A DNA stretch of 57,724 nt, filler included, from Malassezia furfur (lineage: Eukaryota): assembly GCA_052055015.1 (NCBI GenBank). It is 2 parts of 2 records of this genome, joined end to end, with 100 filler letters (N's around TTAATTAATTAA, not from the genome) between each part and the next. Parts side by side here need not be neighbours in the genome. Positions count along the whole stretch, not along the records: positions 1 to 29,037 come from JBQJIT010000108.1; positions 29,138 to 57,724 come from JBQJIT010000109.1. One strand, written 5' to 3'. Positions within the stretch are counted from its first letter, which is position 1; each line of letters opens with the position of its first letter. Shown piece by piece: positions 1,677 through 57,724 of this stretch. The notes below the pieces were generated by a model, which did not search any database, was not told the origin of the DNA, and worked only from the letters and a program-made list of their open reading frames with translations. Position numbers and translations under genes: made by a program.

Positions 1677-4564
1677 ATGAGCGCCGATCCCCGGTTCCTG
1701 GATTCGTGGCTGGCAGCGCGGCCCCCGCCAAAGGTGTCGGGCTCGCTGCAAGTGCGCCTCGATGCACCGTCGGGAATCACCCATGCACCCGACCAGACCG
1801 ATCCACACACCGCATCGCGCCGGCTATTTGCCGTGCCGAAGCTTCCTGAACCACCCGAACTCCTGTACGACTTTGAGGACGAGATCATCGGGTACGAGCG
1901 CGCCACGCGGCGAGAGCCGACGTTTGTGCTCGGCGACGATGATCCAGATGGCATGACGCCTGCACAGATGCTCGCCGCCGAGTACCGCGACAAGGACACA
2001 GGCGGCGAGGACGTCCAGCATGACAAGAACCCCGTCGCCGAGGACCACGCAAGCGCACAAAAGCAGACGACGGCATCCGCAGAACCAGAGGCATCTTTCC
2101 CCTCCAAGGCAGACGAGCCAGAGGCTCTGGTGGACCGTGTGAGCGACATGGACCTTGCGCCGGGTAACGCCGACGAGCCTCCTACGGACACGGACGACGC
2201 CGAGCCCCATGGCTTTGCCTTCTCGACAGACGACGCGGACGAGGACATCACCAAAAATGTTTGGGAGTCGGTGTTCACGTCGCGCCAGTCAAGTGCCGCG
2301 CCCCCGAGCGTGTCGGACAAGGCGAGCGAGGCCAAGGGCGCTGCGCCGGCGGCCGAGCATGCCGCGCCGGTGACCGACGATGCCGACGCCCAGTCCCAAG
2401 GCACTTCGGCATCGCACGAGCCTGTCTTTACGGAGGCGCGTGAGGACCAGGATGCTGAGGACGCCAAGGAGTCCGAAGAACCTACAGAGTCCGAGGAGCC
2501 CAAGAAGCCTAAGGAGTCCGAAGAAGCCAAGGAGGCCGGAAAGGAGGACGCAGCGAAGGCATCCGAAGAACCTGAGGCGTCTACCGAGGCCAAGGGCGCG
2601 GTAGACGAGTCGGAAGAGACCACCGAGAAACCTTCGAAGGCGGCCAAGAAGAAGGCCAAGAAGCAGGCCAAGAAAGCCGCGAAGAAGGCCCAGGAGGGCG
2701 GCGAGGACGCCGAGCCCGAGCAGGCCGCAGCAGACGCAAAAGATGAGGTGGGCGAGCATGCTGCTGAGCCTGAGACCAAGGAGTCTGAGACCAAGGAGTC
2801 TGAGGCCAAGGAGCCTGAGGCCAAGGAGTCTGAGAGCAAGGAGCCTGAGGCCAAGGAGCCTGAGGCCAAGGAGCCTGAGGCCAANNNNNNNNNNNNNNNN
2901 NNNNNNNNNNNNNNNNNNNNNNNNNNNNNNNNNNNNNNNNNNNNCTGAGGCCAAGGAGCCTGAGGCCAAGGAGCCTGAGGCCAAGGAGCCTGAGGCCAAG
3001 GAGCCTGAGGCCAACGAGTCCGAGAGCAAGGAGCCTGAGGCCAAGGAGCCTGAGGCCAAGGAACCTGAGGCCAAGGCGCCTGAGGAGGCGAAGCCTGAAG
3101 CCGAGGCCGAACCTAAAGCCAAAGCCGACTCCGAGCCCAAAGCCGAGTCAGAGGCTGCAGACGACTCTGAGCCTAAGCCTGAGACTCAGCCGAAGGCCGA
3201 GACCGAACCGAAGGCCGAGGCTAAAAGTGGCAGCGCGGCCGAAGCTCCTAAGGAGACGCCCACTGGCGACGCCCCACCAGAGACACCTGCTGAGCGTGTG
3301 TCCGAGGCTGGCACGGACGACACCAAGACGGTGGCCTTTGCAGATGGCGTGTCGGAGCACACCGTCGACACCTGGGCGGTGCCCCCCAAGCGCCATATCC
3401 CGATCGCGGACACGGCATCGATCCGCACGGCCCAGTCGCATGCCGCGAGTCTCGCGCCGTCGACCGCCCCGACGATCAGCCAAATGACGCTCTTGTCCAA
3501 CATGAAGCACGACCGGCCCGAGGCGATGCCCAAGCCGGTGCGCACCAACTTCCGCGAGTACAAGTACCAACCGCCGCCGAGTCAGTCGGACCCCAAGTTT
3601 GGCACGCACGTCTGGGATGCGCCCAAGTACAACACGCTGCGCTCCACCGAGACGCTGGCGCAACAGCCGATCGGCATGGACGCCGGCTCGCAGTGGGATC
3701 GCGTGAGTGGCTATGGCCAAGCGCGCCCTGCGGCGCACGACAGCGCGGCGCAGACCTCGCTCGAGACGGTGCGTGCGCTGTTTGTGCCGGACCCTCGTAC
3801 GTGGCACCCGTACCGCTTTGTGCGCCGCACCGACCCGCGGCAGGTGCTCATCTTTGCCGCTGGCACGTCGCTGAGCGGTGCGCAGGTGAAGGCCGCGCAG
3901 GCCGCGAAGCAGGCGGCCATCGAGAACGCCGGCAAAGTCAGCGTCGAGAAGCTGCGCTCGCTCGCCAGTCACTTTGGCACCACGGAGAACACCAACGTGC
4001 AGGGCGGCATCGGCGTGGTGTACTCGCCAACGGCGTCGCTGTGTGCGGCACTGGACGAGCCGTTCGATGCGGCGCGCGCCGAGAAGAACGTGTCGCGTCG
4101 GCTAGAGCGCCCCGAGTTCCCGAACCGCACGACGACGCAGCGTGCGGCGCTGCGCAGTGTGATTGCCGCACTGGAGTACGTGCACTGGGAGAAGGAGGGC
4201 TTTGATAAGGTGGTGATTGCGGTGCACAACGCGTGGATCGTGCGTGGTATCTCGCACGATATCTGGACGTGGCGCCAGAACGGCTGGGTGCTCACGCGCG
4301 AGACGCCGCAGGGCTTGCCCGGCGAGTCGGTGCCGAACCGCGACCTGTGGGAGCTGCTCGACCACCTCGTGCGGCAGTGGGAGGACGTCGAGTACGTGGC
4401 ACAACTCACCCAGCGGCAACTGTCGGTTCTGGCACCTGCCCAAGGCGGCCAACGGCGAGGCCGTGCACCTAGCGGAGCAGGGTGCGGTACGTTCTTTGCC
4501 TCTTACCCAGCTCAAAGTGAACCAGATGCCCACGCTTGTCCGCTGGACGAAGCGCACGCCATAG
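1677..4564 (+). CDS. Long acidic/repetitive protein with C-terminal RNase H-like domain (catalytic residues lost); spans N gap; introns 4392-4413 and probably 4487-4510
   Basis: RNase H-type segments QRAALRSVIAAL, WEKEGFDKVVIA, WRQNGW, VPNRDLWELL, FWHLPKAAN; splicing the 22-nt intron restores frame (EDVD-GNCRFW); KEPEA repeats on both sides of gap 2885-2944. Confidence 0.75.
2766..3080 (+). repeat. Coding 15-bp tandem repeat (GAGCCTGAGGCCAAG; KEPEA/KESET units) interrupted by a 60-N gap
   Basis: Directly visible; copy number unresolved because of Ns at 2885-2944. Confidence 0.95.
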
Positions 4565-4603
4565 TGTTTTCCCGACCTCCACCTGCGTTTCTTTCCGCGG
4601 ACC

Positions 4604-5819
4604 ATGGCTTCCAAGTCGCGGGGCGATGCCGCGAGTGTGTCTGGAGTGCAGAACGCCGACGGGGTCACCTCGCTGCGGTACCAGGCACTGAACCGCGACT
4701 CGTACCGTCTCGACTCGCCGCCGTTCACAGGCGCCGCAGTGACCGGTGCGGGGCCGGTCACGCAGGGCCTTGAGCAGCCGATGCCAAACACGACGCGCGC
4801 CGAGGGAGGGGTTGCGCGCGCGCGCACGCCCCATCGCGGCCGAGGGGATGGTGATGTGCCGCGCTGGGCGCTCGATGCGCGCCGCGCCGATGGCAGCGGC
4901 GAGATCGACGAGGCCGAGGAGCTCGACGAGGAGCTTGACGCGTCGCAGGTCGTGGACGAGACGTTCCACGCGCTGCGCTCGCCGCACACGGCGCCGGTCC
5001 CGCGGCAGGGCGAGTCGATGGACACATATACGTTCCCGCGGCACCGGTTTGCGACGCAGATGCGCGACGAGCGCAAGCAGCCGCTCGTCGTCGTCGCATG
5101 CGGCAGTTTTTCCCCGCCGACCTATCTGCACTTGTGCGTGTGTGATGGCTGACGATAGGCGCATGTTTGAGATGGCCAAGGACCAGGTGATCGAGAATGG
5201 CGACTACGAGCTGGTCGCCGGCTACTACAGCCCTGTGTCGGACCAATACAAGAAGGCCGGCCTGGCCAAGGCGACGCACCGCGTGCGCATGTGCGAGTAC
5301 GTTGCCGTGATTCGCTGACCCAGACTTGCCGTGGAGCGCTCGTCCAACTGGCTCATGGTGGATGCGTGGGAGTCGCTGCAGGGCGAGTACCAGCGGACGG
5401 CCGTGGTGCTCGACCACTTCAATGAGGAGATCAACGGCAAGCACAACGAAAAGGGCATGTTGCTCTCCGACGGCACGCGCAAGCCGATCAAGATCATGCT
5501 GTTGGCCGGCGGCGATCTGATCCAGAGCATGGGCGAGCCCGGCGTGTGGGCCGACTCGGATCTGCACCACATCCTGGGCGGGTACGGCTGTCTGATTGTG
5601 GAGCGCACCGGGGCGGACGTGTGGTCGTTTTTGCTGTCGCACGACCTGCTGTGGTTGCACCGCCGGAACCTGATCGTGGTCAAGCAGACCATCTACAACG
5701 ACATCAGCTCGTCCAAGGTCCGTCTGTTTGTGCGCCGCGGCTACTCGATCAAGTACCTGCTGCCCAACAGTGTGATTCAGTACATTGAGCAAAACGCACT
5801 GTACCGCGCATCCGAGTAA
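4604..5819 (+). CDS. NMA1: Nicotinamide/nicotinate mononucleotide adenylyltransferase; introns 5134-5158, 5297-5323
   Basis: ACGSFSPPTYLHLRMFE, SPVSDQYKKAGL, WLMVDAWES, NDISSSKVRLF, IKYLLP; spliced frames continuous. Confidence 0.95.
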
Positions 5820-5837: not shown

Positions 5838-7171
5838 CTATGCATTTCCAACCGGGATCGAGCCGAGGCCCAGCAGCAGTTCCACCGCCTGGCGGTCGTG
5901 CTCGGTAAAGTGCCCCGCCGGCATGGACTTCGCACTCGATTGCGACGCCGGCGACGAGTGCGGCTGCGACTCTTCCTCAAAGAAACCGCTGTCGTCGTGC
6001 TCCTCGGACTTGAGCGGCGCGGCCACACGCACCGGCGCCGCATCGCTCCGTGCGCTCGACTCGCGCCGCGTCACGGGGATCGACGGCGTGCGCGGCCACA
6101 GCGCACACTCGCGCGGCAAACGCGAGCCTGCCGACGCCACGCGCCGGAACGCCGAAAGCGGTTTCGCGCGGGGCATGCGCGGCGGCGCATTCTCCTTGTC
6201 CTGCGCGAGCCGCAGCGCATCGAGCGCGGTCGGCTTGCGCGGCACATGCAGCGGACGCGCCATCGGAGCGACGTGCGGCGCGGCCGTCGGCACGGCCTGC
6301 GGCTGCACCGGCTGCAGCGGCGCACGCACGGGCATACTCTCGGTGCGGCGCAGCGGCTTGGCGGACGATGGCGGTGAGGTTTCGCGCGCCGCAGCAAACT
6401 CGAGGCTGAGCGACGCCTGCCGCTTGAGCGGGCGCGCGGCCGACGGACGGCGCGCGTGCATCATATTCCGCGCGTCAGACGCGTCGGGCGCGTCGCGCTT
6501 GCGTGCACGGCGCTGCGCGAGGCGGCGCAGCGTCATTTCCTCCTCGTCCTCGTCCTGCGATGCCGGCACATCGACGTCCTCGACGTCGCTTGAGCTGTTC
6601 ACCGCGCTCGAGCTCCCCATGCGCTGCCAGATGTCGACGTCGGCCGCGGGCTCGGGCGTCGGCATGCTCGGGCCGAGCTGCGCATGGCCCTCGGAGTCGG
6701 TGGTGAGCGAAATGCACGGCGAGCTCGCAGCGCGACGCATCGCGCCCTGGCGCGCCGCACCCGGTAGCGGCCCCACGAGTTCGTGCAGGTCGCGCAGGCC
6801 GTGCAAATGGGCCAGATCGAACGTCTGCACGGGCAGGCGGTGCGCGCCGCCCATGGCGGGCGACGCGCCGGGCCCGCTGTAGCGCTGGGACCGCTTCTTT
6901 TCCGCCTGGCGCCGGTTCTGAAACCACACCGATACGGCTCTGCATGAGCCATATTCACGTACCTTGGTGTCATCCCGACGCTCTGCGCGAGACGCTCGCG
7001 CGTCTTTTCGTTGGGAAACGCGTTCTGCAAGTAGGCGGACATTAGGATGTCGACCTCGTGCGGGCGCGTACGGCGCCGGCGCTTCTTTTCGCGCATCTCA
7101 GGCGGATTGGGCATGGCAGGAGGCCGCTGTGAGTCGCCTGGCACTCCATGCACGTCCGCGACGCTGGCCAT
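5838..7171 (-). CDS. Homeodomain transcription factor (Yox1/Yhp1-like); intron 6940-6962
   Basis: KKRRRRT...FPNEKTRERLAQSVGMTPR|AVSVWFQNRRQAEKK joined by a 23-nt intron. Confidence 0.85.
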
Positions 7172-9754: not shown

Positions 9755-9758
9755 GAGC

Positions 9759-13604: not shown

Positions 13605-14046
13605 TTACCCCAAGTAGTCCACCGACTTGCCACCCATCGTGGCCTGCGACGGCGTCGTACCGCCGTTCGCACCGGGCGGCACCAGCTCGTGGAGCTTCTC
13701 GCCGAGCTTGAGGGTGTTCCACTTCACCACGCGTGGGTCCTGGCGGAAGCGGTCGTTGAGCACCTTGAGCGTCGGTGCATTGGTATCAAACTGCATCAGC
13801 CAGTAGCTAAGGTCAGCAATGCAGACACGTACTCGCCGGCCGTGTGGTATTGCTGGTGTCTCCGAGCCCGTTGCGGCAGGGTCCGCTTGCCCCAGTATTG
13901 CACGTTGCGCACGACACCGCCGTGGTCAAGCACCAGGCGCGACGTCGACTGCACCAGGTCGCGCAGAGGCGCCGACTCTGCAGACGCAATCGCCACGCAG
14001 AACAACTCGTAGAGCCTAGGGTTAGCACGCGAGCCACCTACGGCAT
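13605..14046 (-). CDS. MRP17: Mitochondrial ribosomal protein bS6m; introns 14016-14041, 13807-13832
   Basis: MP|LYEL, GGVVRNVQYWG, GD|YWLMQFD, DPRVVKW. Confidence 0.85.
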
Positions 14047-14076: not shown

Positions 14077-15238
14077 CTACACGGCTACGGCCTGGTGGAG
14101 TTGGAGGCACAGGTGCAGCAGCTGGAGCGCCTCGTTGCCGCCGTCCATGAGCGCCTTGTCCGTCTCGCCAAACTGCAGCGCGCACTTGGTTTTTTGGCGT
14201 GCATTCAAAAGGGGGTGTAGAATCACATAGTCGTGCAACTGGAGGACCACTTGCGTGCTCGAATACCCTTCGCGCACCACGTGCTGCACCGCCGAGGAAA
14301 TCCGGTCAAACGACGAGCCGTGCGCGCGCGGCCCGCTGTCTTCGTCTGTATCGATCCCGACGCTCCGCGCCAATGTCTCAATAACATGCTGCGGCACGAT
14401 GCCCGCAAGTTCAGCAACCGCATCCCCCGTCATGTCGCGCACATCGCCGCCGCGTGCCGACGCCAGGCGAGACACAGACTGTAGGTAAGTAATGGAGCGG
14501 CGCATATCTCCTTCTGAGGCCCGGATCAGTGCAGGGATTAGGTCGTCGTTGAGCTTGAGCCCCTCAGAGGCCGCGATGAACCGCAGGCGCTCTTCTGTAC
14601 TGGCCTGGTCCAATGGGCGGAACCGAAACTTGCTGCAACGCGATGCAACCGGCTCAATGATGCTGTATTAGACACACACATACCGTGTGACATAGTTGCA
14701 AATGAGGCAGAAACGCGTCGTGCGGCTGTACTGCTCCATGATACGACGGAGCGCGCCTTGTGCGTCTTGGGTCATACTGTCGGCCTCGTCGAGGATCACG
14801 ATTTTGTACGGAGGCGAGGGATAGTTGCTGCACGGTCAATACACCACGTACGGGTTCGGTGCCGAGACGGCCATCTTGGCAAACGACTTGATCTTGTCGC
14901 GCACCACGGAAATGCCACGCTCGTCGGACGCGTTCAGCTCCAGGACGCGCGATTTCATCAGCTCAGGTCTGTGTCAGAGTGTACAACATACCCATACAGC
15001 TGGCGCGCCAGCGCTAGGATCGTAGACGTCTTGCCTGTGCCGGGCGGGCCATAGAAGAGCATGTGCGGGAGCTGGGTAAGTCATGTAACGTACATTGGCC
15101 GTTTTGAGTGCATTGCGAAGGATAGTCACCGCATGCTGCTGCGATGCGACCTCATCAATGTTCTTCGGTCGACTGGGTCAGCCGTAACACCTACTAGCGC
15201 TCGACCCACGGCCGGTTCTCGGCGCGTGCTTCCGTCAT
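14077..15238 (-). CDS. RFC2: Replication factor C small subunit; introns 15173-15194, 15072-15093, 14969-14991, 14828-14851, 14663-14683
   Basis: [65 protein letters not shown]; all five 21-24-nt introns restore frame. Confidence 0.95.
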
Positions 15239-15281
15239 GAGGACGAAACGTGTGGCCGATCGGCAGCCGATCTTTAATTCC

Positions 15282-17515: not shown

Positions 17516-17625
17516 TGCTGTCGGCCCGCATTTGCTTGTGTCTAGCGCGCACAGACCATAGGACGACGCGACTTGGAAAGCATTCCCTCAAGTATGTTGG
17601 ACTGACCCTAGATTCGCAACTGCAA

Positions 17626-27152: not shown

Positions 27153-27227
27153 CGGGCATCGTGTGGCGCCGTGGCGGGCGGACGAACGGAGGCTGACAAA
27201 GCATGCGCGGCGGCTAGCGGAGACCTA

Positions 27228-44530: not shown

Positions 44531-44997
44531 ATGGACGGCGCAGTGGACGCGTACGCGGTCCTGGGCATTGCCCGCGACGCGGATGCCGCAACGATGCGCG
44601 CGGCGTACTTGCGCCTTGCGCGTACGGTACGTGCTCTCGTACCCTGACGCAGCACCATCCCGACAAGGCGGCCCACGCCGACACACACGAGCGCATTCGG
44701 CTCATCAACGCCGCATACGAAACGCTGCGAGACCCTGCATTGCACGCAGCATACGAGGCGCGCCGTGCCGCGTACCTTGCGCAGGCAAATCAAGCACGTG
44801 CACCGCGCATCGCCGACTCGGTCGACGTCGACGCGCTGGACCTCGAGGGCGAGGGCGACGCCATGCGGTTGATTTACCCTTGCCGGTGTGGGCAACAGTA
44901 CGTCGTGACACCCGACGAGATCGCGCGTGGACAGGCTTATTTTGCGTGCACGGGGTGCTCCGAGGTGATCCGGCTGGTGTACGATAGGGAAGACTAG
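44531..44997 (+). CDS. DPH4: J-domain + CSL zinc-finger protein (diphthamide synthesis); intron 44627-44652
   Basis: YAVLG..AY..LART|HHPDK, YPCRCG, CTGCSEVI. Confidence 0.85.
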
Positions 44998-45002: not shown

Positions 45003-47762
45003 CTATTCGAGCAGCCGCTTTGACGCAATTTCGTGCACCATGCGACGGCGGAGGTAGGGCATGTGTTGCTGCGCAAAGTTCCACACGTAGTCGTCAGCGT
45101 GGAGCAGGCGCTCGCGCCGCAGTTCCGTGGGGTCCGCGGCGTGGCAAAACTCGGGCGCACTCAGGGGTGGGGGCATCGGCTCCAGCGGGTCACGACGGCT
45201 CAGTTGCTCGAGCGTCTGGATGGCAAACACGCCGCAGTCGTACCCGTTGGCCTGTTGGGGCGACGTGTCACCTGCGAAATAGTCCTCCCAATCAGTCAGA
45301 TCGAGCTCGAGCTGCTTCTTGGCGCGCAGCTCTTCACGCAGGTAGGCACGCAGTGTACCAAACACGGCGGGCCGCGGAATGCCCATGCTGTCGTAGTACT
45401 CAAAGCGGCGCAAGCGCAGATTGATCGCGGCGCACACCCAGTGCGACTGCCCGAGATTGATGGGGAGCAGAATCAAGTCCTTGGTAAACAGGTCCACGCG
45501 GCGCGACCAGCGCTGCACGCCGGCAAAACCGCTGCTCTGCAGCTTTTGCCAAAAGAAGGACGAGAAAAAGTGTACGGACCAATAGGCACACGCATCACTC
45601 GGCAGCGCAGCGTGCTGCTCGCGTGCACGCTGGCGCACGGCCTCAGCATCGTTGGCGCGCTGCATGATGAGGTTCCCGTAGAAGTTGATCACCTCGTCGT
45701 TGAGCCACTGGCCGGGGCGCAACTTGGCCAGGTCGTGCGCCTCGACCTGTGCGCCGGTCATGCTCGCAATCACGCCACGCCGCTGGAACATGGAGCGCAC
45801 CTCGGCCTCGAGCGGCTCCGGCAGCGCGGCAGGCAGCGGCGCGCGGCCCAAAATGCCGTGCTCGGCGCGTCGCTTCTCGCGCTCGGCCCGTGCACGCGCC
45901 AACCGTTCCTCCTCGGGGACACGGGGCGGCGGAAGGCGCATACGAGCATGTGCTTCGCGCGCGCGGAGCGCTTCAAGGGTACGCTGGGTATAAGCCTGTT
46001 CGTCAAAAGCCTCTGCGGCGGCGCGCGGCGCCAGGCGCTGCGACTCGAGGTCCAGCAGGCGCTGTACACGCATACGCTTCTTGACGAGGCTCTGGAAGTC
46101 TTCAAATGCCGCCGGAGACTTGGCGCCATGCGCCATGGCGCGGTACGTTTCGTAGATCATCGAAGCGATACGCGCATGTTGCCGACTCTGGATGCTCGCC
46201 TTGAACTCCTCGTTTCCAAGCGGCGCTTTGCGGCGCATGCTCAGCGACGATGCAGGGCGCGTAGGGTAGCGCATGTCGCGCGCTTGGAAACCCATGCGCT
46301 TGGTCGCAGGTGAGATGCGGAACAGGCGCTTGGGCACATCGCCTTGGCGTACCGAGCCGAAGTTAGGGCTAAACTGCGACCTGCGCGGCGCGTGAAGGGA
46401 GAGCGAGGCAAAGCGTTGTGTGGGAGACGTGCCTCGGGGCGAAGTCGCAAGAGGGGGCGAAGGTGCTGACGGGGAAGCGGCGGCTGGGGAGGGCTCGTCT
46501 TCAGAGTCGTCAATGACCACGACTTCGGAGATGGGTTGGCGCGCAGGGACAGGTTGAGCGTCTGGGCCAGAATTCTCGTCCCATTCTCCGACATCCTCCT
46601 CGCTGTATTCGGCGGGGTCGGTCTCTGCTTCGTCCGAGCTCACGTCCTTTGAGACGTCTTCAGACTCGTCGACATCTTCCTCTTCCTCTTCCTCCTCTTC
46701 CTCCTCTTCCTCCTCGTTCTCCTCGCCCTCCTCTTCTCCCTCCTTTCCTTCCTCTTCATCCTCCTCCTCCTCTTCCTCTTCGTCTTCCTCCCCTTCCTCT
46801 TCCTCTTCTTCTTCCTCGTCTTCTTCCTCTTCGCCTTCCACGTCCTCCTCTTCCTCCTCCTTTTCTTCCTCTTCGCCCCTTTCCTCGTCCTCTTCTTCCT
46901 CAGCGTCTTCCTTCTCTTCTTCCTTCTCTTCTTCCTTCTCTTCTTCCTTCTCTTCTTCCTTCTCTTCGTCCTTCTCTTCGTCCTCCTCTTCTCCCTCTTC
47001 TTCTTCCTTGGCTTCTTCCTCTTCCTCTTCTTCCTCTTCCTCTTCCTCTTCCTCGTCCTCTTCCTCCTCTTCCTCGTTTTCATCTTGCGCGGTTTCTTCC
47101 TCAGACACTTGCTGCTCGTATATTTCCTCATCGCCATTCTCAGCCCCTTTGTTCTCCTCCGCAGCGCCTACACTCCCTTCTCCTTCCGTCCGCTCTTGGA
47201 CGTGCTCCATTTCTGACCAAGTCACTTGCTTGGTCTGGTGCGTTTCTTTGTGCTCGTCTTGCGCAGCCAAATCCTTTGCAACAGCTTCCAGGCCGTCGTC
47301 CATCGGAAGCAGATCGACTGTGTTGTGTGTAGCAGTGCTGTGTACAGTCTTTTCCGTGGAAGCAGACGTAGACAATCCAGAAACACTCTGTTCCGGAGAC
47401 GCCATGTCGTCTTGTGCATCATCTGCTGTCGACTCTGGTTCTTGGTTGGAAGGATGCTGTATAAAGGCCTCGCCTGGGTTGAGCGCAGATTCCGTCGCGT
47501 CGGCGGACGTGATACCAGCCTGTTTGACTTGCTCTGTATCTGTTTGCACATCCTTTTCTGCTGTGCTCTCTGTGTCGTTACCTGAGTCTTGCGTCGGCAT
47601 ACCGTCCACCGACTCTTCGGTCGCGCGCCGTTTCCGTCGTGGGTGTGCGACTGTGTCGGCCAATGCGACCAGATGCCCCCACCACCGATTCAGAAATGAC
47701 GGCTTGCTCGGAATTTCGGGGTGTACGCTCGACTCGGTCGACGATCGAATCCGTTTTGGCAT
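45003..47762 (-). CDS. ULP1: SUMO protease (Ulp1 family) with long Glu-rich tract
   Basis: WLNDEVINFY, FSSFF, SHW, YYDSM, PQQANGYDCGVF; start inferred at MPKRIRS. Confidence 0.88.
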   Translation of the reverse strand: MPKRIRSSTESSVHPEIPSKPSFLNRWWGHLVALADTVAHPRRKRRATEESVDGMPTQDSGNDTESTAEKDVQTDTEQVKQAGITSADATESALNPGEAFIQHPSNQEPESTADDAQDDMASPEQSVSGLSTSASTEKTVHSTATHNTVDLLPMDDGLEAVAKDLAAQDEHKETHQTKQVTWSEMEHVQERTEGEGSVGAAEENKGAENGDEEIYEQQVSEEETAQDENEEEEEEDEEEEEEEEEEEEEEAKEEEEGEEEDEEKDEEKEEEKEEEKEEEKEEEKEDAEEEEDEERGEEEEKEEEEEDVEGEEEEDEEEEEEEEGEEDEEEEEEEDEEEGKEGEEEGEENEEEEEEEEEEEEEDVDESEDVSKDVSSDEAETDPAEYSEEDVGEWDENSGPDAQPVPARQPISEVVVIDDSEDEPSPAAASPSAPSPPLATSPRGTSPTQRFASLSLHAPRRSQFSPNFGSVRQGDVPKRLFRISPATKRMGFQARDMRYPTRPASSLSMRRKAPLGNEEFKASIQSRQHARIASMIYETYRAMAHGAKSPAAFEDFQSLVKKRMRVQRLLDLESQRLAPRAAAEAFDEQAYTQRTLEALRAREAHARMRLPPPRVPEEERLARARAEREKRRAEHGILGRAPLPAALPEPLEAEVRSMFQRRGVIASMTGAQVEAHDLAKLRPGQWLNDEVINFYGNLIMQRANDAEAVRQRAREQHAALPSDACAYWSVHFFSSFFWQKLQSSGFAGVQRWSRRVDLFTKDLILLPINLGQSHWVCAAINLRLRRFEYYDSMGIPRPAVFGTLRAYLREELRAKKQLELDLTDWEDYFAGDTSPQQANGYDCGVFAIQTLEQLSRRDPLEPMPPPLSAPEFCHAADPTELRRERLLHADDYVWNFAQQHMPYLRRRMVHEIASKRLLE
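46660..47100 (-). repeat. Low-complexity Glu-rich coding tract (polypyrimidine on +), including 12-bp EEEK-type units
   Basis: Directly visible TCC/TTC runs. Confidence 0.95.
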
Positions 47763-47843: not shown

Positions 47844-50248
47844 ATGGACGCTCGGGGCAGCGGGCTGCAGGACGACGGTGGGGAACGCGCAGCGGTGTTT
47901 GTCGCGACACTCGTTCCTTCTGACGGCACCACACATGAAGTAGAGGCGAAGTTGATCCAGGCGATCCATACGCGATGCACGGCGCCGCCCCCCGCGGGCG
48001 CGGGTGGCTACGTGTGGCACCGCGAAGCGCCCGTCGTCATGCCGAGTGATGACGCGGCAGACCCACCCGGCACCGTACAGGTCCGAATGCGTGTACAGGA
48101 CAGTGTCGATGACGAGTGGTTTATGACCTATATCTTGCGCACACTAACTCAGTCCGTGCCAGGCCTGTGCGTGCGCGTCGAAGATGAAGATGGCGAGTTT
48201 CTTCTGATCGAAGCGGCACACGAACTGCCCAAGTGGGTGAGCCCCGAAAACGCCACAAACCGTGTATGGGTCTACAACGATGCACTGCATCTCATCCCCC
48301 TTGAGCATACCACCGATGCCCCACACGACGACGAGCACGAAGCGTACCTGTCGGTCGCCGATGCCGTACAACTCGTGCGCAATGCACAAGTGCCCACGCA
48401 GGCGCCTGACACTGTCCAGGCCGCGGCCTTTGCACGCCTCGAAGGATACCCCACGGCGGCAGCGAGTCATCGCCACCGCACACTCGCGCTGGTGCCGCGG
48501 TCGGCCGCGCGGATTTTGCTGGGCCATCCCCAGATGGTCGCCGAGGCGGTCCATGCGTTGACGAGCCGTGACGTGGTGAGCATGCGTGCAGTGGAGCGCG
48601 CAGAGCGCTTCCGTATAGTGCCGCAGGACGAGATCGTCCCTGCGCAGGACGTCGTCCTCATACCCGTGTGTATGACACAGCACCTATATGCTCAACTGTC
48701 GCACGACCGCTTCTTCCCTCCCAAAGCGTACGGCGAGCGATGGCGGCATGCCGTTGAGCAGTACCGGCTCTATCTAAGCGGCACCGAGCGCGCATCCCGT
48801 GTGAGCGAAGAGCAGGCAACATGGGGCCGCTGGTGCGACACAGGCGCTAAACTCACCGCCGGCCTCGAGCTCGCGTGGGCCACCAAGAGCGCACGCGCCG
48901 CCCACGCCGCCGAAAAGCACGACACGGCGGCTGACGCGGCACTGATGGCATCGCTCACAACACAGGGGTACTTTGGCGCTGCAGCGCCGCACAGCGACCG
49001 CTGGAACGAACTGGCCCGTGAGGCGCGTACATTGGCAGCACCGCACGGCGACGACGCCTCGCTCTCGTTGCATGCGCTGCGCGCGACGCTCGAGGCGCAG
49101 CCGGAAACGCTCGTGCAGCAAGCGGCCCTCCCGTTCGAAGTGGGTGCAAGCCGCGCCGCAGAAGACAGCGAGGCGTGGCTAGCCGAGGTGCCCAAAGAGC
49201 TCGACGCGCTCGCAGAGCCAGGCACCAATGCAGAGGACCAGACCATGGATCGGCTGGGCACGTTCTTGACGAAAATGAACGAGTTCCTCCATGGCGAAGG
49301 CGATGTCGAGGGCGCCATGTTTGACGATGACACGTTTGAGGATGACGACGAGGCCGGCGACGACGACGACGACGAGGCGGACGAGGGCAATGCACAGCGT
49401 ACAACCGACCACCTTGTTGAGCCCGTGCCTCTGTCTGAATGGGGTGCAGCGAATGCTCAACGCGATGCCGAAGCACACGATACGCCACCTGCGCCGCGTG
49501 CGGCCGAAACGGCGCCGGTGCCGGCGCCCATCGACCGACCACGAGAGGCGAGGCTCCAAGGCTTTTCGTCCAAGGAGCACTACGAGGGCGACAGCGACAG
49601 CGAGGGCTCGCTGCAGGGCGACGAGCACGATACACACGAAGAGCGCACCGACCGCCACCGGTGGCTCGAGTTGGACGAGGCGCCGGAAGAAGAGGACGGC
49701 GTCGATATGGCGAACGAGCTCGACGGATTCCTCGACTTTACGCGCAAGGCGCTGGGACTGTCGGATGCGCAGTACGCGCAGATCCTGGACGAGCGAAAGG
49801 AGCGGGGGGGTACGTGCTCACCACTTACGCAGCCTATGTTCCGGCACACACGCAGCCGGCCGCGTCTACCTTGTCGCCGCGCGCGTCAGCGCCCAATACG
49901 CAGCTGGACTCGTTCGATACGGTGCTGGCCGCAATGGAGAATGAGCTCGCCAATGAGCGCGCCAAGCGTATGCCGGAGGAGGAGCCTGCAGACATGGAGG
50001 AAGACGAGGAGCTGGGCGAAGAGGACGCCGAGCTGCTCCAGCAGCTGTTGGCGTCCGGCGCCTCGATCCCCGAGAGCCTCCAACGCTTTGCGGACACGAG
50101 CGGCGCGAGCAGCACCGAGATCGACGCGTTCGCCAACTTCCTCGAGAGCTTCAAAGCACAAAACGGCGGCGCGGGGCCGCTGTCCAACCTCGCCGGGCGC
50201 CTCGGCGTGGGGTCACTGCCACGCGACGCCGACGGACGCCCTTCATAG
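47844..50248 (+). CDS. Ecdysoneless (ECD/hSGT1)-family protein; intron 49810-49832
   Basis: YVWHRE, DSVDDEWF, DEDGEFLLIEAAHELPKW, NRVWV, NFLESFKAQ..GAGPLSN. Confidence 0.85.
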
Positions 50249-50631: not shown

Positions 50632-51531
50632 CTACTTCTTCTCCTTGTCCTCCTCCTTAGGCTTCGGCGGCACAAGCTTATACTCGTTCGGCTTGTAGGA
50701 TGCACCCTCGCCCACCTGCTCCCAGGGCGACACCGAGTCAAAGTTGCGGTGGGCCTGCATGAGCTGCACAGGCTCCGACACAACACGCTTCTTCTCCTCG
50801 TCCCAGCGCACCTCGGTGTAGCCGGTGAGCGGGAAGTCCTTGCGGAGCGGGTGGCCCTCGAAGCCGTAGTCGGTCAGGATACGCCGGAGATCGGGGTGGC
50901 CAACGAAGAAGATACCAAACATGTCCCATGCCTCGCGCTCAAACCAGTCCGCGCTGCGGAAGAGACCCGTGACACTCGGCACGGGCGTCACCTCGTCCGC
51001 GTACGTCTTGACACGCAGACGCGCGTTGTTGCGGATACTCAGCAGGTGGTACACCACCTCGAAGCGCTGCGAGCGCGACGGGTAGTCGGCGCCCGAGATG
51101 TCCATGAGCGACTTGTATTGCGTCAGGGTGTGGTCACGCAGGAAGGACATCACGGGGATCACGCCCGAGGGCGCGACGTGCAGCGTGATCTCGTCCTTGT
51201 ACACGCTGAACTGCTGGATATAACGGGGGAGTGCTGTGTGAGAAAGCGCCGCCATAAGCCGACGTACCAGACAGAATCCAGCTCGCGTAGTCGTGCAGCG
51301 GCTGCTGCATCTTTCCGTACACCTCCATCGGGTTCATGTTGGCGCGTTCCACAAACGGCGTGTCGAGCATGACTGGGTGAGTAGACCGAACCTACCCTTG
51401 TCGCCCTGCTCACGGACGAGCTTGGTGGTGCTCAGACTACGCACGGCACACGCCGCACGGCCCGAGGAGCGCATTGCCGAAGCGGCGTAGCTCGGCTTCG
51501 CGAGCCTCATCAAGTTGCGCGCAGCCGCCAT
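50632..51531 (-). CDS. NDUFS3: NADH:ubiquinone oxidoreductase 30-kDa subunit; introns 51373-51395, 51234-51267
   Basis: [46 protein letters not shown]. Confidence 0.96.
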
Positions 51532-51641: not shown

Positions 51642-52386
51642 ATGGAGATGGCGCCGACGGAACGGACGGGCGCGCGGCCTGTGGAGCAGCAGCTCCCGTA
51701 CACTGATGCGCTCCCTTACTATGACAGGGAGATTGATACCATTCCTCAGATGCGCGAGCTCGTCGATCAAGAGATCGAGGCCGAAAAGAAGCTCCTGAAC
51801 TACGATCCACAAACGCTGCTTCCCCCGGAGCACGCCGTCTCGCCGCTGCTCGCCGAGGAGCTCGCCCGCGCCGAGCGTGGAGAAAAACTGGACGCGCTGG
51901 ACACGTCGAGATACCAACTGGATGCCCCCGCTCAGGGGCTCAAGGCGCCGGAAGAGGCGTGGGAACAGAGCGTCCGAAACGCCGAAGTGCAGCTCGCGCA
52001 CATGGACGGACGGTACGTGCGCACCAACTGATGCAGGTTGAAAAACATCGAACTGCTTCGGCGGTATGGACGTACGTGGACCCCCTCACCCAGCGAATGT
52101 ATGGCGCTTGCACAACTACGATCAGGAGGCCATGCTCCAACTCCAGACCCAGGCAGGGAAAACAGTGGAGGAGACGACTACCGAGGTGAACCGCGCGCGG
52201 AAAGAGGCGCAGCTCGCCATCGGCGACAAGCTGTCTACACTCGAGTCGCGCTGGGCCGCACTTGTCTCCAAAAACCTCTCGATCCGCGCCGCGAACCTCA
52301 CCGCGGCCGCCGAGATCGAAGACTATCAGCGGCGCGCGCGCGAAGTTGAGCGCGAACTCGCGCAGCTCGATGCGGCTAATGCATAG
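51642..52386 (+). CDS. SPF27: Pre-mRNA splicing factor SPF27/BCAS2 (Prp19 complex); introns 52013-52036, 52072-52093
   Basis: DALPYYD, LDTSRY, NIELLRRYG|PNVWRLHN, VNRARKEAQ, LESRW. Confidence 0.88.
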
Positions 52387-52410: not shown

Positions 52411-53209
52411 TCACGCAGACGTGCCCTTCGGAGCGCTGCGCAACAAATCCAAAAAGTTGCTCTTGCTCAGCTCGTTGACAGCACGCTCCGAATTGCCCAG
52501 TGCGTTGGTCTTGTTGCTCTTGCGCTTGAGCGCACGCGCTTTGTCCACGTCGTCGACCGACGTCTCTTGCGCCGCACGGATCGCATTGAACAGCTTCACA
52601 ACACCACGCTGGGCAACTTTGCGCAGGCGGCGCTCGTATCCCTTGGCGCCGCCCTGCTCGGTCCATTCGATCATCTGCGGCGTGTTTTGGTCGACCGTCT
52701 GGCCCGGCAGGACACCCGGGGGTAGCCAGTCGCCGATCACGTCGCGCACATGAGCACGCTCCTCACGCTCGCGTCTCTTTTCGAGAGCCATGCGCGCCGC
52801 CTTTGCGCGCAACGTCGTGCTGTTGGCCGTGCGGCGCACGCTCGGGGCGAGCGACAGAATCGAGGAGGTTGTGGGCTTCGGAGTTGCGGCCTCCTTGCCG
52901 CCCAACAGGCCCTCCATTACCTCACCGAACTGCGTAGGTGATACGGCCCTTCGCTTGCGTTCTGTGTCAGTTGGTCGCGCACGTACTGGTCGTCTTCTTG
53001 CTATGCGTGTCGCCCTGCGCATCCCAGTCCTCTTCGGTATCGTATGCGTCGTCCTCGGCCTCGTCGTCCTGCGACAGGACCTCATCGCTGATTGCCTCAT
53101 CCGAGTCCTCTTTTGTGCTGGCTTTGCGCTTCTGCGATGCCTTTTGGGACGCCGCGCCCTGCGCGAGCGACACGCGCAGCTTCGATGCGCCCGGTGCCGA
53201 TTTCGCCAT
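52411..53209 (-). CDS. RRP15: Pre-60S factor Rrp15; intron 52962-52986
   Basis: ERRLRKVAQRGVVKLFNAIRAAQ, LSKSNFLDLL. Confidence 0.88.
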
Positions 53210-53327: not shown

Positions 53328-54649
53328 ATGATCCGTGCATACAACCTGTTCCGTTCGCGTGCCTCGATGGCGAACAGCATGCTGCGTGCTGGCCCTGCTG
53401 CCGCTACGCAGAAGCGTTTTCTTTCGATCCACGAGTACCTGTCCATGGGTATGCTGAACAAGTTTGGCATCGACACGCCCAAGTTTATTCCGGCCAAGTC
53501 GCCGGAGGAGGCGTACGAGGCCGCTAAGAAGTTCAATGGCGAGCCCGTCGTGATCAAGGCCCAGGTGCTTGCGGGTGGCCGTGGCAAGGGCCACTTTGAC
53601 AACGGCCTGCAGGGCGGTGTCCACCTCGTGAAGACGTGCGTATTTTTGCCCCCTGTTCCCACTAACGCAGTCCGGAAGAGGTTCGCGACCTCGCCAAGAA
53701 GATGATCGGCTCCAAGCTGATCACCAAGCAGACGGGCGCTGCCGGCCGCATTTGCAATGCCGTCATGATCGCCGAGGCTCGTGCTCCGGCGCACGAGTAC
53801 TACGCCGCGATCCTGAACGACCGTGTTACGCAGCTCCCTGTGCTCATCACTTCGAACCAGGGTGGTATGTCGATTGAGGATGTCGCGAAGGAGAACCCGG
53901 ATGCGATCATCACCACCCCGATCGACTACACCAAGGGCCTCGACCTGAAGGCCGCCGAGGAGGTCGCACACAAGCTCGGCTTCTCCAGCCCTAAGCTCGA
54001 GAAGGAGGCTGCCGAGACGTTTGTGAACCTGTACAAGCTCTTCGACCAGAAGGACGCCACGCAGGTCGAGATCAACCCCCTGGTCGAGACGAAGGACGGC
54101 TCGGTGCTCTGCCTGGACGCCAAGCTCGGCTTTGACGACAACGCCGACTTCCGCCAGGAGGACGTGTTCAAGCTGCGCGACACCACCCAGGAGGATGCGA
54201 GCGAGGTCGAGGCCGGCAAGTACGGCCTGAACTTCATCAAGCTCGACGGCAACATTGGGTGCCTGGTCAACGGTGCCGGTCTCGCGATGGCGACGCTCGA
54301 CGTGCTCTCGCTCAAGGGCGGCAAGCCTGCCAACTTCCTGGACGTCGGCGGTGGTGCGAACGCCGCTGCGGTTAAGAAGGCGTTTGAGCTGCTGCTGCAG
54401 AGCAAGGACGTGCGTGCGATCTTTGTCAACATCTTCGGTGGTATCATGCGCTGCGATATCATCGCCGAGGGCATTATCCAGGCCACTAAGGAGCTGCATC
54501 TCACCATCCCCCTCGTTGTCCGTCTGCAGGGTACCAAGGAGGCTGAGGCCAAGGAGCTCATCAGGAACTCGGGCCTGAAGATCTTTGCTTTTGACCACCT
54601 CGACGAGGCTGCCCAGGCGGCGGTGCAGAAGGCGGAAACGCAGCAGTAA
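53328..54649 (+). CDS. LSC2: Succinyl-CoA ligase beta subunit; intron 53636-53670
   Basis: LSIHEY, KAQVLAGGRGKG, EINPL, GCLVNGAGLAMAT, NIFGGIMRCD. Confidence 0.97.
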
Positions 54650-54769: not shown

Positions 54770-54808
54770 GTCGGTGCAAGAGGACGCTCCATGCAAGCAT
54801 CCGTGGTA

Positions 54809-55270
54809 TCAGGACACGCGGCAAACCACCTCGCCTGTGAGTTTGCGGCGCATTGCCTCTTTTGCCTCGAACCACCCATCTTTGCCGCAGTCGATGATGC
54901 CAATCTCGCCCGCACGAAGCGGCGTCACAAACTTGGCCCGGCGGCCGGTCACCCAGCGCAAAAGCTCCTCGCTGGTCATCGAGAGCCGACGGGACGGCTT
55001 GCTCACGAGGTTCATGCGTTCAAGGACCGGGCGATCGTCCGAGCGGTACTTCAAATCCACCCACAGCCGCCGCCGCACATCCGGCGCGCTATTCCAGTCG
55101 ACGGCACTCGGACCAGCAATGGTGCCGCGCGTCACGTTGTAAATAAATCCATGTTGCAGGAGAATCGAGGTGATCCACAGATTCGCCTTGGTATTCGCAA
55201 TCGGGACCGACTTCAGCTTCGCGCGCGACGCATTCTGCAGACGCACGCACAGGTCTCCGTACGACGGCAT
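54809..55270 (-). CDS. MRPS8: Mitochondrial ribosomal protein uS8m
   Basis: LQNASRA, GFI, RRLWVDLKY, VSKPSRR, GEVVCRV. Confidence 0.88.
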   Translation of the reverse strand: MPSYGDLCVRLQNASRAKLKSVPIANTKANLWITSILLQHGFIYNVTRGTIAGPSAVDWNSAPDVRRRLWVDLKYRSDDRPVLERMNLVSKPSRRLSMTSEELLRWVTGRRAKFVTPLRAGEIGIIDCGKDGWFEAKEAMRRKLTGEVVCRVS

Positions 55271-55313
55271 CGCGGCGACAGGCAGACGACAACCTTCGTA
55301 TCTGTCACGTGAT

Positions 55314-56186
55314 CTATGTCCGCCGGAAGGCCACAGTCGTGACAGTGGAGCCTTTTTGGCCGCCCTGCGTGAGCGAAGCAACATACAAACATAAACGTCG
55401 GTGCAGGCACGACGTGCTCCACGGCAAAGCCTGCGGGCACAAACTTACGTTCCAGTTCATCCTGGGTAAAATTGCAGCTCGTAATGAAGAAAATGCCAGG
55501 ACGCTCGGACGGCTCCCGGCGCGTCAGTTGCACAACGGCCTCCACGTAGAGATCCACAGGTAGTTTGCCATGCACAGGCTGGGACGAGAGCGCAATCTGA
55601 CGTCAGTACAAAACACACGCACAGCGTCAAACTGGGTCAGTTTATCACACGTACAGTGCCTTTGTCACACACAATGTCCCACCCCTCTCCTGCGTTCGCG
55701 TCTTGCTTGAGGCGCGCGACACGCTCATGATCGCGGAGGTCTGCCTCGTCGAACACAATGGACTCGCATCCATCGCCGCGCTTCTCTGCAATAGCGCGCG
55801 CAAGATCAATCGAGGCGGACGAATAGTCTACTCCGCACAACCGCCGAGGATCGAGCGCATCGCTCGGCAGTTCTTCCTGTGCCTCAAGGAGCGAGAACAG
55901 AAGGTGTCCATTTCCTGTTCCCAAATCCAGCACATAGGGGGCATGCTGGAAGGGATTGTCCTCCAGTAGCTCGACCAGATACGCGATCATGCGCTCGACA
56001 CTGTCTTCGCCAAACCCAAGTCAGACCCAAGAACCTTACCAGACCTCGCCCTCATCGCCAATTTCCTTGTACGTGTCGATCTCACGACTTTATTAGGTTC
56101 ATAACGTACGCGTACACGCGGTCCCAATGTTCTTTGGTCCCCAACTGCGACTCGGGAAGCTCCTCAACTGCACCAGGATCGATCAT
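55314..56186 (-). CDS. EFM4: eEF1A lysine methyltransferase Efm4/See1; introns 56088-56109, 56016-56039 (GT..GG), 55632-55654, 55597-55622, 55365-55386
   Basis: SQLGTKEHWD, GDEGEVW|FGE, LDLGTGNGHLL, GVDYS, DKGT|FDA|IAL, ITSCNFT, F|GGQKGS. Confidence 0.9.
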
Positions 56187-56218
56187 GGACAAAATTTCCA
56201 ACACACCTCCACACTTCG

Positions 56219-57314
56219 ATGGCCCCTCCGCATACGTTCCTGGACGTGCCGTATCGTGACGGGGCATGCGCACGCCAGTCACTGGATCTCTTCCTCCCAA
56301 GCACAGCATCAGACACGCACCCTGCTACGCTCCTGGTATTTGTGCATGGGTATGTATCTGGTCTCATGCAGGGGTGCCTGGCGTACCGGTGACAAGAAGG
56401 AATTTCATGACTTGGCGGATGGTCTGACCCATGCAGAAAACATGGCAGTTGCATTGATTGAGTATCGACTGTCTACGAAGGATGCACCTGAAATCCAGCA
56501 CCCAGATCATATTCTGGATGTGTACGATGCATTGCGTTTTCTCGTGCAGAATACACAGAAGTATCCCTACGACGCACAGCGCATTGTGTTGGTGGGCCAC
56601 TCGGTTGGTGCTTGGATGGCTTTGGCATCAGTAATGGAGCCCGATGCATCGGTAACTCTGCCGCAGGGTGCACTTACTATGCCTGTTCTCGATGCTTCTG
56701 TGCGATCCGCCATTGATACGATCGTGCTTGTGGTACGCATGACGCATCTGACTCCAGGATGGAATCTTCGATGTGGAAGCAATGCTGGAAGAATACCCGG
56801 AGTATCATGGATTTGTATCGAACGCTCTACGGACATCCCCGACTGAGCCTATCGTGTATCGTGGGGTGTCGAGTCGGGCATGGAAGTGGACGGAAGATGC
56901 ACGAAAGCGCGTCAAGGTGTTTGTTCTACACTCCCCCGAAGACGAGCTGCTCAGCATCGCACAGCCGTGTGCTGTGCTGGAGCGCTTCGCCCAGCTTCGG
57001 TGCTCAGATGAGACAGTTCAGGAAATCCAGATTCCCGTCCCCAAGGACAGCTCGGTCTCATCGGCATACAGCTATCGAGGGAACCGCGCCGAGCCGCCCG
57101 TTGCGAAGATATTTCACAACACCCTGCACGGTATCCCGAGCGCCATCCAGCTGGACTGGGTGCATCTTACGGTACGTATACAATGGCCAGCGAACGTATA
57201 CTGACAAGATCTGCGCAGGGCACGCATGATGCGCTGTTGCACACCGATGTCTTTCGGAACATGCTTTCTGCACTAGCACACCGCGATCCTACGCAAGGGG
57301 AACGCGCGCAGTGA
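56219..57314 (+). CDS. BNA7: Alpha/beta hydrolase, kynurenine formamidase-like; introns 56350-56371, 56733-56757, 57172-57218
   Basis: VFVHG|GAWR, EYRLS, HPDHILDV, GHSVG, DGIFD, HSPEDEL, GTHD. Confidence 0.72.
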
Positions 57315-57501
57315 GATGCGGCCAATCCGTCGGTCCATGAAACATAGGTCGTTGCGAGACCTATAGGGGATAGGCTATAATATTGCTCGCCCAGGGCAAC
57401 ATGTCAAGAATATAGGTGACCGTCCATTGAAACGGCATTTTTTTGATCTTTGGCGGGAAGAAACGAATGCGAAACGGCAATTCGTATGAGGCGCCAGTCG
57501 T

Positions 57502-57724
57502 TTACGCCTTGCGACGGAACGAGCAGCCTGGTGTGTAAGTAAGGGGAGGAAGACGGAGTACATACCGACAGCGAGACGGGCCTTACCACCGGTGGGCTGG
57601 CTCAGGACCTGGGCGCAGCTGCCGCAGAGGACAACCGACTGGGCGTGCGAGAAGACAGTGGTGATGGCAAAGCAGCCAGGGCACTTCACGTCCATGAAGA
57701 ACGAGTTGGGGTTCTGGACCACGC
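57502..57724 (-). CDS. RPS27: 40S ribosomal protein eS27, 5' end outside window; intron 57528-57565
   Basis: [36 protein letters not shown]. Confidence 0.96.

Follow-up and report, generated by a model that had tools for sequence, protein, structure and literature searches.

How short can a spliceosomal intron be and still hold everything that its removal requires? The question is raised by a stretch of DNA from the yeast Malassezia furfur (NCBI GenBank assembly GCA_052055015.1; 57,724 nucleotides (nt) from two joined records, here called the window), in which 22 protein-coding genes are interrupted by GT-AG segments most often only 22 nt long. An earlier note on this DNA had listed 48 introns, 40 of them of 21-27 nt and the longest of 47 nt, and had gone on to propose that so small an intron calls for a modified route of spliceosome assembly. 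A reconstruction built without that list returned an identical length histogram and the same first and last coordinates, 4392 and 57565. What, then, are these segments, by what signals are they marked, and do they need a different machine? The answer reached here is that they are very probably ordinary U2-type GT-AG spliceosomal introns of M. furfur, compressed close to the minimum length, and that this compression is a trait of the genus.

Lengths, reading frames and splice signals

To map the genes, 137 reading frames drawn from all six frames were compared with Pfam, and a codon log-odds score was trained on 22 Pfam-matched segments of the window. Paths from ATG to stop were searched with jumps over GT..AG segments, the codon-usage score being combined with the splice signals. 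Permissive settings were rejected, as they invented dozens of 'introns' of 30-127 nt and merged adjacent genes, and strict settings gave about 40 short introns and about 38 gene models in the window. The final set, which combines the strict search with hand curation against homologues and PDB chains, holds 48 introns in 22 genes and spans positions 4392-57565 of the 57.7 kb.

The lengths of these introns have a hard left edge at 21 nt. Three introns are of 21 nt, 14 of 22, seven of 23, six of 24, three of 25, five of 26 and two of 27, with single introns of 29, 33, 34, 35, 38, 39, 45 and 47 nt beyond these, giving a mode of 22, a median of 23.5, a mean of 25.7 and a range of 21-47 nt. Splicing out all 48 leaves stop-free frames in 22 of 22 genes, of which 21 run from ATG to stop and one, eS27, exits at the window end. 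Thirty-four of the introns have lengths that are not multiples of three, and among the 14 that are (3n introns) ten hold an in-frame stop. Retention would be stop-free for just four (4487-4510, 17854-17886, 21659-21682 and 22074-22094), each adding 7-11 residues. Some of the exons are tiny as well: the first exon of the mitochondrial S6 gene has 5 nt, one of EFM4 has 9, the last of ERG2 has 11 and one of BCAS2 has 35.

The signals that mark the introns are highly regular. All 48 start with GT and 46 with GTRNGT; the hexamer is GTACGT in 30, GTATGT in eight, GTGCGT in four and GTAGGT in four, the two exceptions being one GTAAGG and one GTACGC, while the last exon bases before the 5' site have no consensus. 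At the other end there is CAG in 42, TAG in four, AAG in one and TGG in one, which is to say AG in 47 of the 48 and GG in a single case. Between the two lies a branch-type motif, CTNAY in 45 introns (CTGAC 16, CTCAC 8, CTAAC 8, CTTAC 4, other forms 9) and NTNAY in the remaining three, and it is by this motif that branch points were assigned. Measured to the intron end, its A is at 5 nt in 32 introns, at 6 in seven, at 7 in three, at 8 in two and at 10 or more in four. Counted from the 5' G, the A is most commonly at position 17 and never before position 16, save in a single intron where either of two motifs is possible. From the 5' hexamer to the motif there is a spacer of 6-8 nt in 26 of the 48. 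The typical layout is thus GTACGT, 6-8 nt, CTNAC-NC-AG, and a 22-nt intron, made up of 6 + 7 + 5 + 4 nt, therefore has no slack.

Within the introns the G+C content is 0.51, against about 0.63 for the window overall, where it ranges from 55 to 71%. The pyrimidine fraction is 0.53 and a run of at least seven pyrimidines occurs in only four introns, so that there is no pyrimidine tract; the U12-type 5' site RTATCCTT occurs in none of the 48. The layout first proposed, of GTRYGT, a short spacer and CT(G/A/C)AC set against YAG with no polypyrimidine tract, holds. These signals, their spacing and the need for the introns to be removed, by frame and by homology, are plain. Could such a pattern arise by chance? 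Written as GTRNGT-N3-18-YTNAY-N0-4-YAG, it has 43 matches on both strands of the whole window, whereas 200 dinucleotide-preserving shuffles gave a mean of 3.2 (standard deviation 1.7, maximum 9), so that the real count is 13-fold higher. The 43 comprise 37 introns of the set, three alternative donors of set introns and three unexplained matches, about the chance number.

Protein homology across the junctions

The removal of an intron can also be judged from the protein that results. Two tests were used, namely the exon-by-exon coordinates in Pfam profiles or PDB chains and the local alignment of spliced models with homologues, and a junction is called exact where there is no gap and no absent or extra residue across it. 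By this measure 27 of the 48 junctions are exact: five each in RFC2, RAD18 and EFM4, three in ERG2, two each in NMNAT and BCAS2, and one each in the genes for mitochondrial S6, a homeodomain protein, a DPH4-like DnaJ-CSL protein, succinyl-CoA ligase beta and DRG. A further four (those beginning at 4392, 14016, 56350 and 57528) are consistent with homology without being exact, and no intron tested by homology failed, which upholds the earlier claim that most of the introns are needed to restore conserved protein.

In RFC2 all five junctions are exact, including in alignment to the intron-free budding-yeast proteins. The 21-nt intron GTATGTGTGTGTCTAATACAG (14663-14683, minus strand), which had been singled out as an example in the earlier note, is where it was said to be, and its removal leaves a gap-free alignment through a conserved region of RFC2 with 11 of 11 homologues. 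The introns at 14828-14851 (24 nt), 14969-14991 (23 nt) and 15072-15093 (22 nt) are likewise exact, and that at 15173-15194 (22 nt) is exact in nine of 11 homologues, the others being P0005, with a gap, and P0006, which is N-truncated; both look like faulty models. The closest relatives of this RFC2 are those of M. sympodialis (72%) and M. pachydermatis (70%), with other Malassezia next and Ustilaginomycotina at about 50%. In a search for relatives of RAD18 the top matches were again Malassezia, and over the 106 residues of the EFM4 exon at 55673-55990 (minus strand) there is 100% identity with a record labelled EFM4 [Malassezia furfur]. These matches identify the window as nuclear DNA of M. 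furfur.

RAD18 (21079-22196, minus strand) has exact junctions at 21202-21223 (22 nt), 21443-21464 (22 nt, within the SAP domain), 21659-21682 (24 nt), 21859-21879 (21 nt) and 22074-22094 (21 nt, within the RING finger). The last of these is one of the stop-free 3n introns, and the seven residues that it would add are missing from five of six homologues. P0070, the remaining one, has an unspliced insert of its own there, and its alignment is gapped around 21659-21682. One M. furfur protein agrees with the RAD18 model save for an insert of intron size and two substitutions, and from the public M. furfur protein P0067 the model is two substitutions away. Those two substitutions stand beside an EFM4 exon that is identical to another M. 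furfur record, and the strain of the window, or its parental haplotype, may differ from the source of P0067.

In ERG2 (plus strand) the 23-nt intron at 19286-19308 is exact between Pfam positions 167|168|169, with which the alignment concurs, and removal of the 26-nt intron at 19432-19457 joins on an 11-nt last exon that gives the conserved C-terminus only when spliced; at 18804-18825 (22 nt) the alignment is gap-free but falls in a variable N-terminal region. NMNAT (plus strand) has a 25-nt intron at 5134-5158 that splits codon 82 (PDB 9iw1_A residues 81|82|83) and a 27-nt intron at 5297-5323 (9iw1_A 127|128|129, with residue 4 of exon 3 at 132). The two introns of BCAS2/SPF27 (52013-52036, 24 nt, and 52072-52093, 22 nt, plus strand) are exact jointly: the profile stops at 108 and restarts at 123, with exactly 14 residues between, the 35-nt exon included. 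Among the single cases, the homeodomain intron (6940-6962, minus strand, 23 nt) separates profile positions 1-40 from three residues and then 44-57. The mitochondrial S6 intron at 13807-13832 (minus strand, 26 nt) leaves the protein continuous with the last part of P0006, a fused M. cuniculi model, and with Ribosomal_S6 positions 2-55 and 58-90. The intron of the DRG/Rbg GTPase (41454-41475, plus strand, 22 nt) lies at PDB 7nrc_So 22|23|24 and between 11-31 and 33-374 of 4a9a_A, that of the DnaJ-CSL (DPH4-like) gene (44627-44652, plus strand, 26 nt) follows DnaJ profile positions 1-26 (+1) and precedes 28-63, and that of succinyl-CoA ligase beta (53636-53670, plus strand, 35 nt) falls at ATP-grasp_2 positions 63|64|65.

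EFM4 was curated against P0060, an RNA sequencing (RNA-seq)-curated M. sympodialis protein, and P0062 from the smut fungus Thecaphora, and the resulting model (55314-56186, minus strand, 251 amino acids) agrees with the curated M. sympodialis protein; uS8m, at 54809-55270 on the same strand, is a separate single exon, contiguous with residues 7-154 of PDB 8om3_H. The introns at 55365-55386 (22 nt) and 56088-56109 (22 nt, with an AAG acceptor) are exact against both proteins, as are a 23-nt intron at 55632-55654 and a 26-nt intron at 55597-55622, which lie upstream and downstream, respectively, of a 9-nt microexon (55623-55631). The fifth segment, 56016-56039 (24 nt), begins normally with GT and has CTGAC as its branch motif, but its 3' end is TGG where YAG would be usual; it is the sole removal that retains six residues conserved in P0060 and P0062, the canonical alternatives costing residues, either five, with a 39-nt intron, or 21. 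It is possible that this segment has a non-AG acceptor, that it borders an alternative exon or that it contains an assembly error.

Four introns are consistent with homology only. The 22-nt intron of an RNase H-like gene (4392-4413, plus strand) is preceded by a Pfam RNase_H match to the exon end, with the C-terminal motif continuing in the next exon and the frame restored; the 26-nt intron after the 5-nt first exon of mitochondrial S6 (14016-14041, minus strand) places the start codon before profile position 2. In the alpha/beta-hydrolase gene (56350-56371, plus strand, 22 nt) Abhydrolase_3 position 7 is the first residue of exon 2 and earlier positions are found at the end of exon 1, and in ribosomal protein eS27 (57528-57565, minus strand, 38 nt) the upstream exon matches the PDB chains to about residue 74 of 82-84, the 8-9 residues remaining being the length of the last exon.

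The other 17 were placed by signals and frame. They comprise the two 22-nt introns in the 5' part of the CAF1A gene (15511-15532 and 15636-15657, plus strand), three in a small coiled-coil gene on the plus strand (17854-17886, 33 nt, with a T-run after CTGAC; 18024-18046, 23 nt; 18294-18320, 27 nt), three in a SUR7-family gene on the plus strand (35161-35205, 45 nt; 35434-35472, 39 nt; 35555-35583, 29 nt), one in a CBS-domain gene (41197-41218, minus strand, 22 nt), one in an SGT1/ecdysoneless-family gene (49810-49832, plus strand, 23 nt), two in the complex I 30-kDa subunit (51234-51267, 34 nt, and 51373-51395, 23 nt, minus strand), one in Rrp15 (52962-52986, minus strand, 25 nt) and two more in the hydrolase gene on the plus strand (56733-56757, 25 nt, with the donor GTACGC, and 57172-57218, the longest at 47 nt). 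For the 24-nt intron of a CorA-type Mg transporter (34540-34563, minus strand) there is, beside the signals, an in-frame stop if it is retained. The least certain member of the set is the second intron of the RNase H-like gene (4487-4510, plus strand, 24 nt), which was placed by its signals, GTACGT..CTTACCCAG.

Recognition of a 22-nt intron

To what extent is any of this new? In M. sympodialis ATCC 42132, Zhu et al. (2017) reported 5350 introns in 4493 genes, with a mean length of 30 base pairs (bp), 99% of them RNA-seq supported, and RNA-seq gave 156% more supported introns than homology-only annotation (PMC5389616). A re-annotation of M. restricta set the minimum intron length at 20 and then at 15 (PMC6473144), and a review describes Malassezia genes as holding 'very short introns' (PMC7426719). 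Very short introns are already known for Malassezia, as summary statistics, and the phenomenon itself is therefore not new; the earlier note was right to say that short introns, below usual fungal lengths, are known for this genus, where the trait is in print (PMC5389616). M. sympodialis and M. furfur are alike in the order of intron length (mean 30 bp there, 25.7 nt here), and a density of about 1.2 introns per gene in M. sympodialis may be set beside 48 introns in a window with about 38 gene models here. A 2021 fungal survey placed M. sympodialis among the intron-poor fungi. In the Malassezia literature searched, which did not extend to the supplementary intron-size figure of PMC5389616, the 22-nt mode, the 21-nt floor, the fixed branch-to-AG spacing and the microexons were not found.

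A branch site held close to the 3' end has precedents elsewhere. In Yarrowia lipolytica just 2 nt part the branch site from the AG and a pyrimidine tract is lacking, and in Trichomonas vaginalis and Giardia lamblia the branch motif is anchored at 4 nt (Irimia and Roy 2008, PMC2483917). The arrangement here is like that of Yarrowia, with motif, 2 nt and AG in 32 of the 48 introns and no pyrimidine tract, and the motif fits the WCTRAYN consensus of anchored branch-point introns (PMC2483917; PMC12316389). However, the introns of Yarrowia are long, with a median of 204 nt, and the anchored-branch genomes (Yarrowia, Trichomonas, Giardia) are intron-poor (PMC2483917), whereas 48 introns lie in 57.7 kb here. 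Trichomonas has only 63 active introns, and one of 23 nt is presented, as in a 2025 paper, among the shortest known (PMC2483917; PMC12316389); here there are three of 21 nt. Unlike the near-invariant ACTAAC of the Yarrowia type, CTAAC accounts for only eight of the 48, the middle base being free (G 16, C 8, A 8 and T 4 among the CTNAC motifs).

Introns of less than 30 nt have been documented in ciliates (about 25 nt in Paramecium and 15-16 nt in Stentor), in microsporidia, and in myxozoans and dicyemids (median 22-27 bp). The introns of the Bigelowiella nucleomorph are of 18-21 nt. What is seen here resembles all of these lineages in the compression of introns to 15-30 nt, the sharp lower limit, the GT-AG ends and the want of a pyrimidine tract. 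In Paramecium, stop-free introns of 3n length are depleted; in the small sample here, 14 of the 48 are 3n, against 16 expected, and four of the 48 are 3n without a stop. The G+C content of 0.51 is a difference from the tiny introns of the ciliate, myxozoan and nucleomorph type. So is the motif itself, since the branch A is weakly conserved in the other tiny-intron lineages (PMC13644364) and explicit in 45 of the 48 here. Moreover, unlike the other tiny-intron hosts, Malassezia is a transformable yeast.

How would so small an intron be read? In an ordinary U2-type reaction the 5' site GTACGT (consensus GTRNGT) would be read by U1 and then by U6, and CTNAC would be read by SF1/BBP and then by U2, the branch being the A that bulges out. 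As 3' site the first AG past the branch would dock at the second step, no pyrimidine tract being involved. The floor of 21 nt, and the at least 16 nt from the 5' G to the branch A, would then represent the steric minimum of the spliceosome, not a different machine.

The earlier note read the same dimensions otherwise, holding that U1 and U2 can hardly bind together on 22 nt and that this implies a modified assembly route. If 22 nt cannot seat U1 and U2/SF3 at the same time, U1 might for example leave before U2 locks on, pairing might occur across exons or the U1 and U2 proteins might be slimmed. This reading has in its favour that a 22-nt intron offers a gap of only about 6 nt from its 5' hexamer to its branch motif, and that with exons of 5, 9, 11 and 35 nt, one of them a 9-nt microexon between introns of 23 and 26 nt, cross-exon complexes would be equally cramped. 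Others have met the same difficulty: the Stentor study conjectures the avoidance of a steric clash and finds branching factors partly non-conserved (PMC9505925), and a Paramecium paper calls the recognition of 25-nt introns poorly understood (PMC8997360). Yet canonical small nuclear RNAs (snRNAs) and U2AF are present in the other tiny-intron lineages examined (PMC13644364), a canonical U2 and U2AF being reported for myxozoans with 22-bp median introns (PMC13644364) and canonical snRNAs/U2AF for Stentor (PMC9505925), and in strength and in closeness to the canonical pattern the signals here surpass those of ciliates. The window itself holds nothing on the machinery, with no snRNA gene by Rfam, and BCAS2/SPF27, its sole recognisable splicing factor, is a normal full-length match. 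An altered route is a reasonable hypothesis but on this balance unlikely. The same doubt attaches to its wider form, in which the genome would hold thousands of introns of 21-27 nt, with the branch A 5 nt from the 3' site and as few as 16 nt from the 5' site and in some cases with exons of 5-11 nt, leaving no room for the textbook U1-U2 complex, whether across the intron or across the exon, and requiring a re-ordered or slimmed early assembly.

Two further explanations concern the reality and the use of the introns. Some of the in-frame, stop-free members could be optional and partly retained, giving protein isoforms; the candidates are 4487-4510, 17854-17886, 21659-21682, 22074-22094 and the EFM4 exon between 56039 and 56088. 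Retention of four of the 48 would indeed lengthen the protein by 7-11 residues with no stop, the only non-YAG acceptors of the set (AAG and GG) both border the EFM4 exon, and a canonical 109-nt intron that skips this exon stays in frame and is the one used in the public M. furfur model. However, the extra residues at 21659-21682 and 22074-22094 are missing from five of six RAD18 homologues, the sixth being P0070, and optional splicing seems improbable. That the whole set is an artefact, made of chance motifs, assembly indels or programmed frameshift sites, is scarcely credible. High G+C does produce long spurious frames, a permissive search readily invents introns and about three motif matches are expected by chance, but the motif is 13-fold above chance, 27 junctions are exact by independent homology, the same three signals stand on the coding strand in every segment, and introns of the same kind are RNA-seq supported in the sister species M. 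sympodialis (PMC5389616).

Ordinary but highly compressed U2-type introns thus remain very probable, although several points weigh against them. The working minimum from branch A to 3' site in Saccharomyces cerevisiae is about 10 nt, and the 5 nt found here is shorter; a gap of 6 nt between the U1 and U2 pairing sites may also misfit the known geometry of the pre-spliceosome. The A of CTNAY is presumed from its motif to be the branch point and is to that extent putative, and that the introns are removed from RNA we infer from protein homology and from the published RNA-seq of another species. For 17 of the 48 the evidence is signals and frame, and for two of this group, 4487-4510 and 17854-17886, which are 3n and stop-free, frame gives no support; retention of 4487-4510 would be harmless, because its length is 3n and it holds no in-frame stop. 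In the strict automatic model EFM4 was joined to uS8m and two intron boundaries were misplaced, errors that homology alone corrected, and the GG end of 56016-56039 would be unacceptable to a canonical second step.

Public gene models, neighbouring sequence and significance

If the introns are as described, how well do existing annotations deal with them? Loci with relatives were compared for RFC2, RAD18, EFM4 and ERG2, and several public models are visibly wrong. The public M. furfur EFM4 model P0056 (352 amino acids) is a chimera that omits two exons, the microexon of 9 nt (55623-55631) and another of 48 nt, and continues into uS8m, and the M. yamatoensis and M. psittaci EFM4 models are also fused. 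For RFC2, the M. cuniculi model (P0006) is cut short and runs into the S6 gene, and a second model is without residues at the first junction. Some RAD18 relatives bear the Pfam family of the adjacent transporter, which suggests gene fusion, and there is intron read-through in some RAD18 and ERG2 models. On the other hand, all five introns are correct in the M. furfur and M. japonica RAD18 models and in the M. sympodialis and M. pachydermatis RFC2 models. That gene finders have trouble with these introns is borne out by the fused, truncated and read-through public models at EFM4, RFC2 and ERG2, three of the four loci examined.

Several segments resemble the introns and were left out of the set. 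That at 24870-24893 (plus strand, 24 nt) has perfect signals, GTACGT..CTCACCCAG, and is in-frame and stop-free in the gene of an RRM protein, ahead of the RRM itself; either a 49th intron or a chance match could account for it. Its reverse complement also resembles a 22-nt GT..AG segment. The 20-nt full-motif match at 17592-17611 (plus strand), between the CAF1A stop codon and a transfer RNA (tRNA) gene, may be an intron of the 3' untranslated region, in which case it would be shorter than every intron of the set, or may be a chance match. Also excluded were 56069-56096 (plus strand), which is antisense to EFM4, 55431-55448 (minus strand, 18 nt), which reads as conserved EFM4 coding sequence, and 27193-27228 (minus strand), a 36-nt GT..AG segment with no branch motif. 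At 25500-28877 (minus strand) two long same-frame PUF-repeat frames are parted by one stop, and 27193-27228 would join them.

The surroundings of the introns have features of their own. The start codons modelled for RFC2 (minus strand) and CAF1A (plus strand) overlap on a CATG palindrome at 15236-15239, which leaves no space for a shared promoter and makes the CAF1A start, and the coding status of its first two introns, uncertain. Runs of N stand at 2885-2944, 29038-29081 and 29094-29137. The first splits two strongly coding plus-strand frames, 1659-2882 and 2947-4413, which are in different frames, and this puts the RNase H-like gene beyond modelling in its upstream part. Same-strand neighbours may be only about 40-45 nt apart from stop to next start (4564-4604 and 55270-55314), so that their transcripts must either overlap or pack extremely tightly. 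Between 36000 and 37000 the G+C content is lower (about 0.59 in a 4-kb window) and there is no convincing coding frame on either strand. At 46665-47207 (plus strand) there is a coding potential of 141 bits opposite the N-terminal part of a Ulp1-protease frame (45003-47303, minus strand), and Pfam gave no match on either strand in this segment.

The sole match of the Rfam scan of the window was the tRNA gene at 17626-17730 (plus strand; 105 nt, 47 bits), which has about 27 extra bases in the anticodon loop, an excess that suggests a tRNA intron; ARAGORN reported no tRNA in the window. Two DEAD-box helicases and an RRM protein were considered as splicing factors and are not called such, because their PDB matches are at the generic family level only. 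A metagenome scan with an RFC2 exon matched 279 pattern stretches and confirmed no relatives among them.

What do these introns mean for Malassezia? The bare existence of very short introns in the genus adds little, as it is published and built into the better annotations. One point worth keeping is the fine structure: the 22-nt mode, the 21-nt floor, the microexons and a branch motif fixed at 2 nt from the AG. Malassezia has been overlooked in recent reviews and papers on the shortest introns, with no mention in the 2026 paper PMC13644364, in 10.1101/2021.03.19.436190 or in PMC10599564. The damage to public Malassezia models, in the form of fusions, skipped microexons and read-through, affects proteome-based work on these yeasts of skin and gut. 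The question of assembly geometry is common to all tiny-intron lineages and not to Malassezia alone; if a re-ordered assembly, which is doubtful, were nevertheless true, Malassezia would be the first genetically tractable system for tiny-intron recognition, because it can be transformed and edited.

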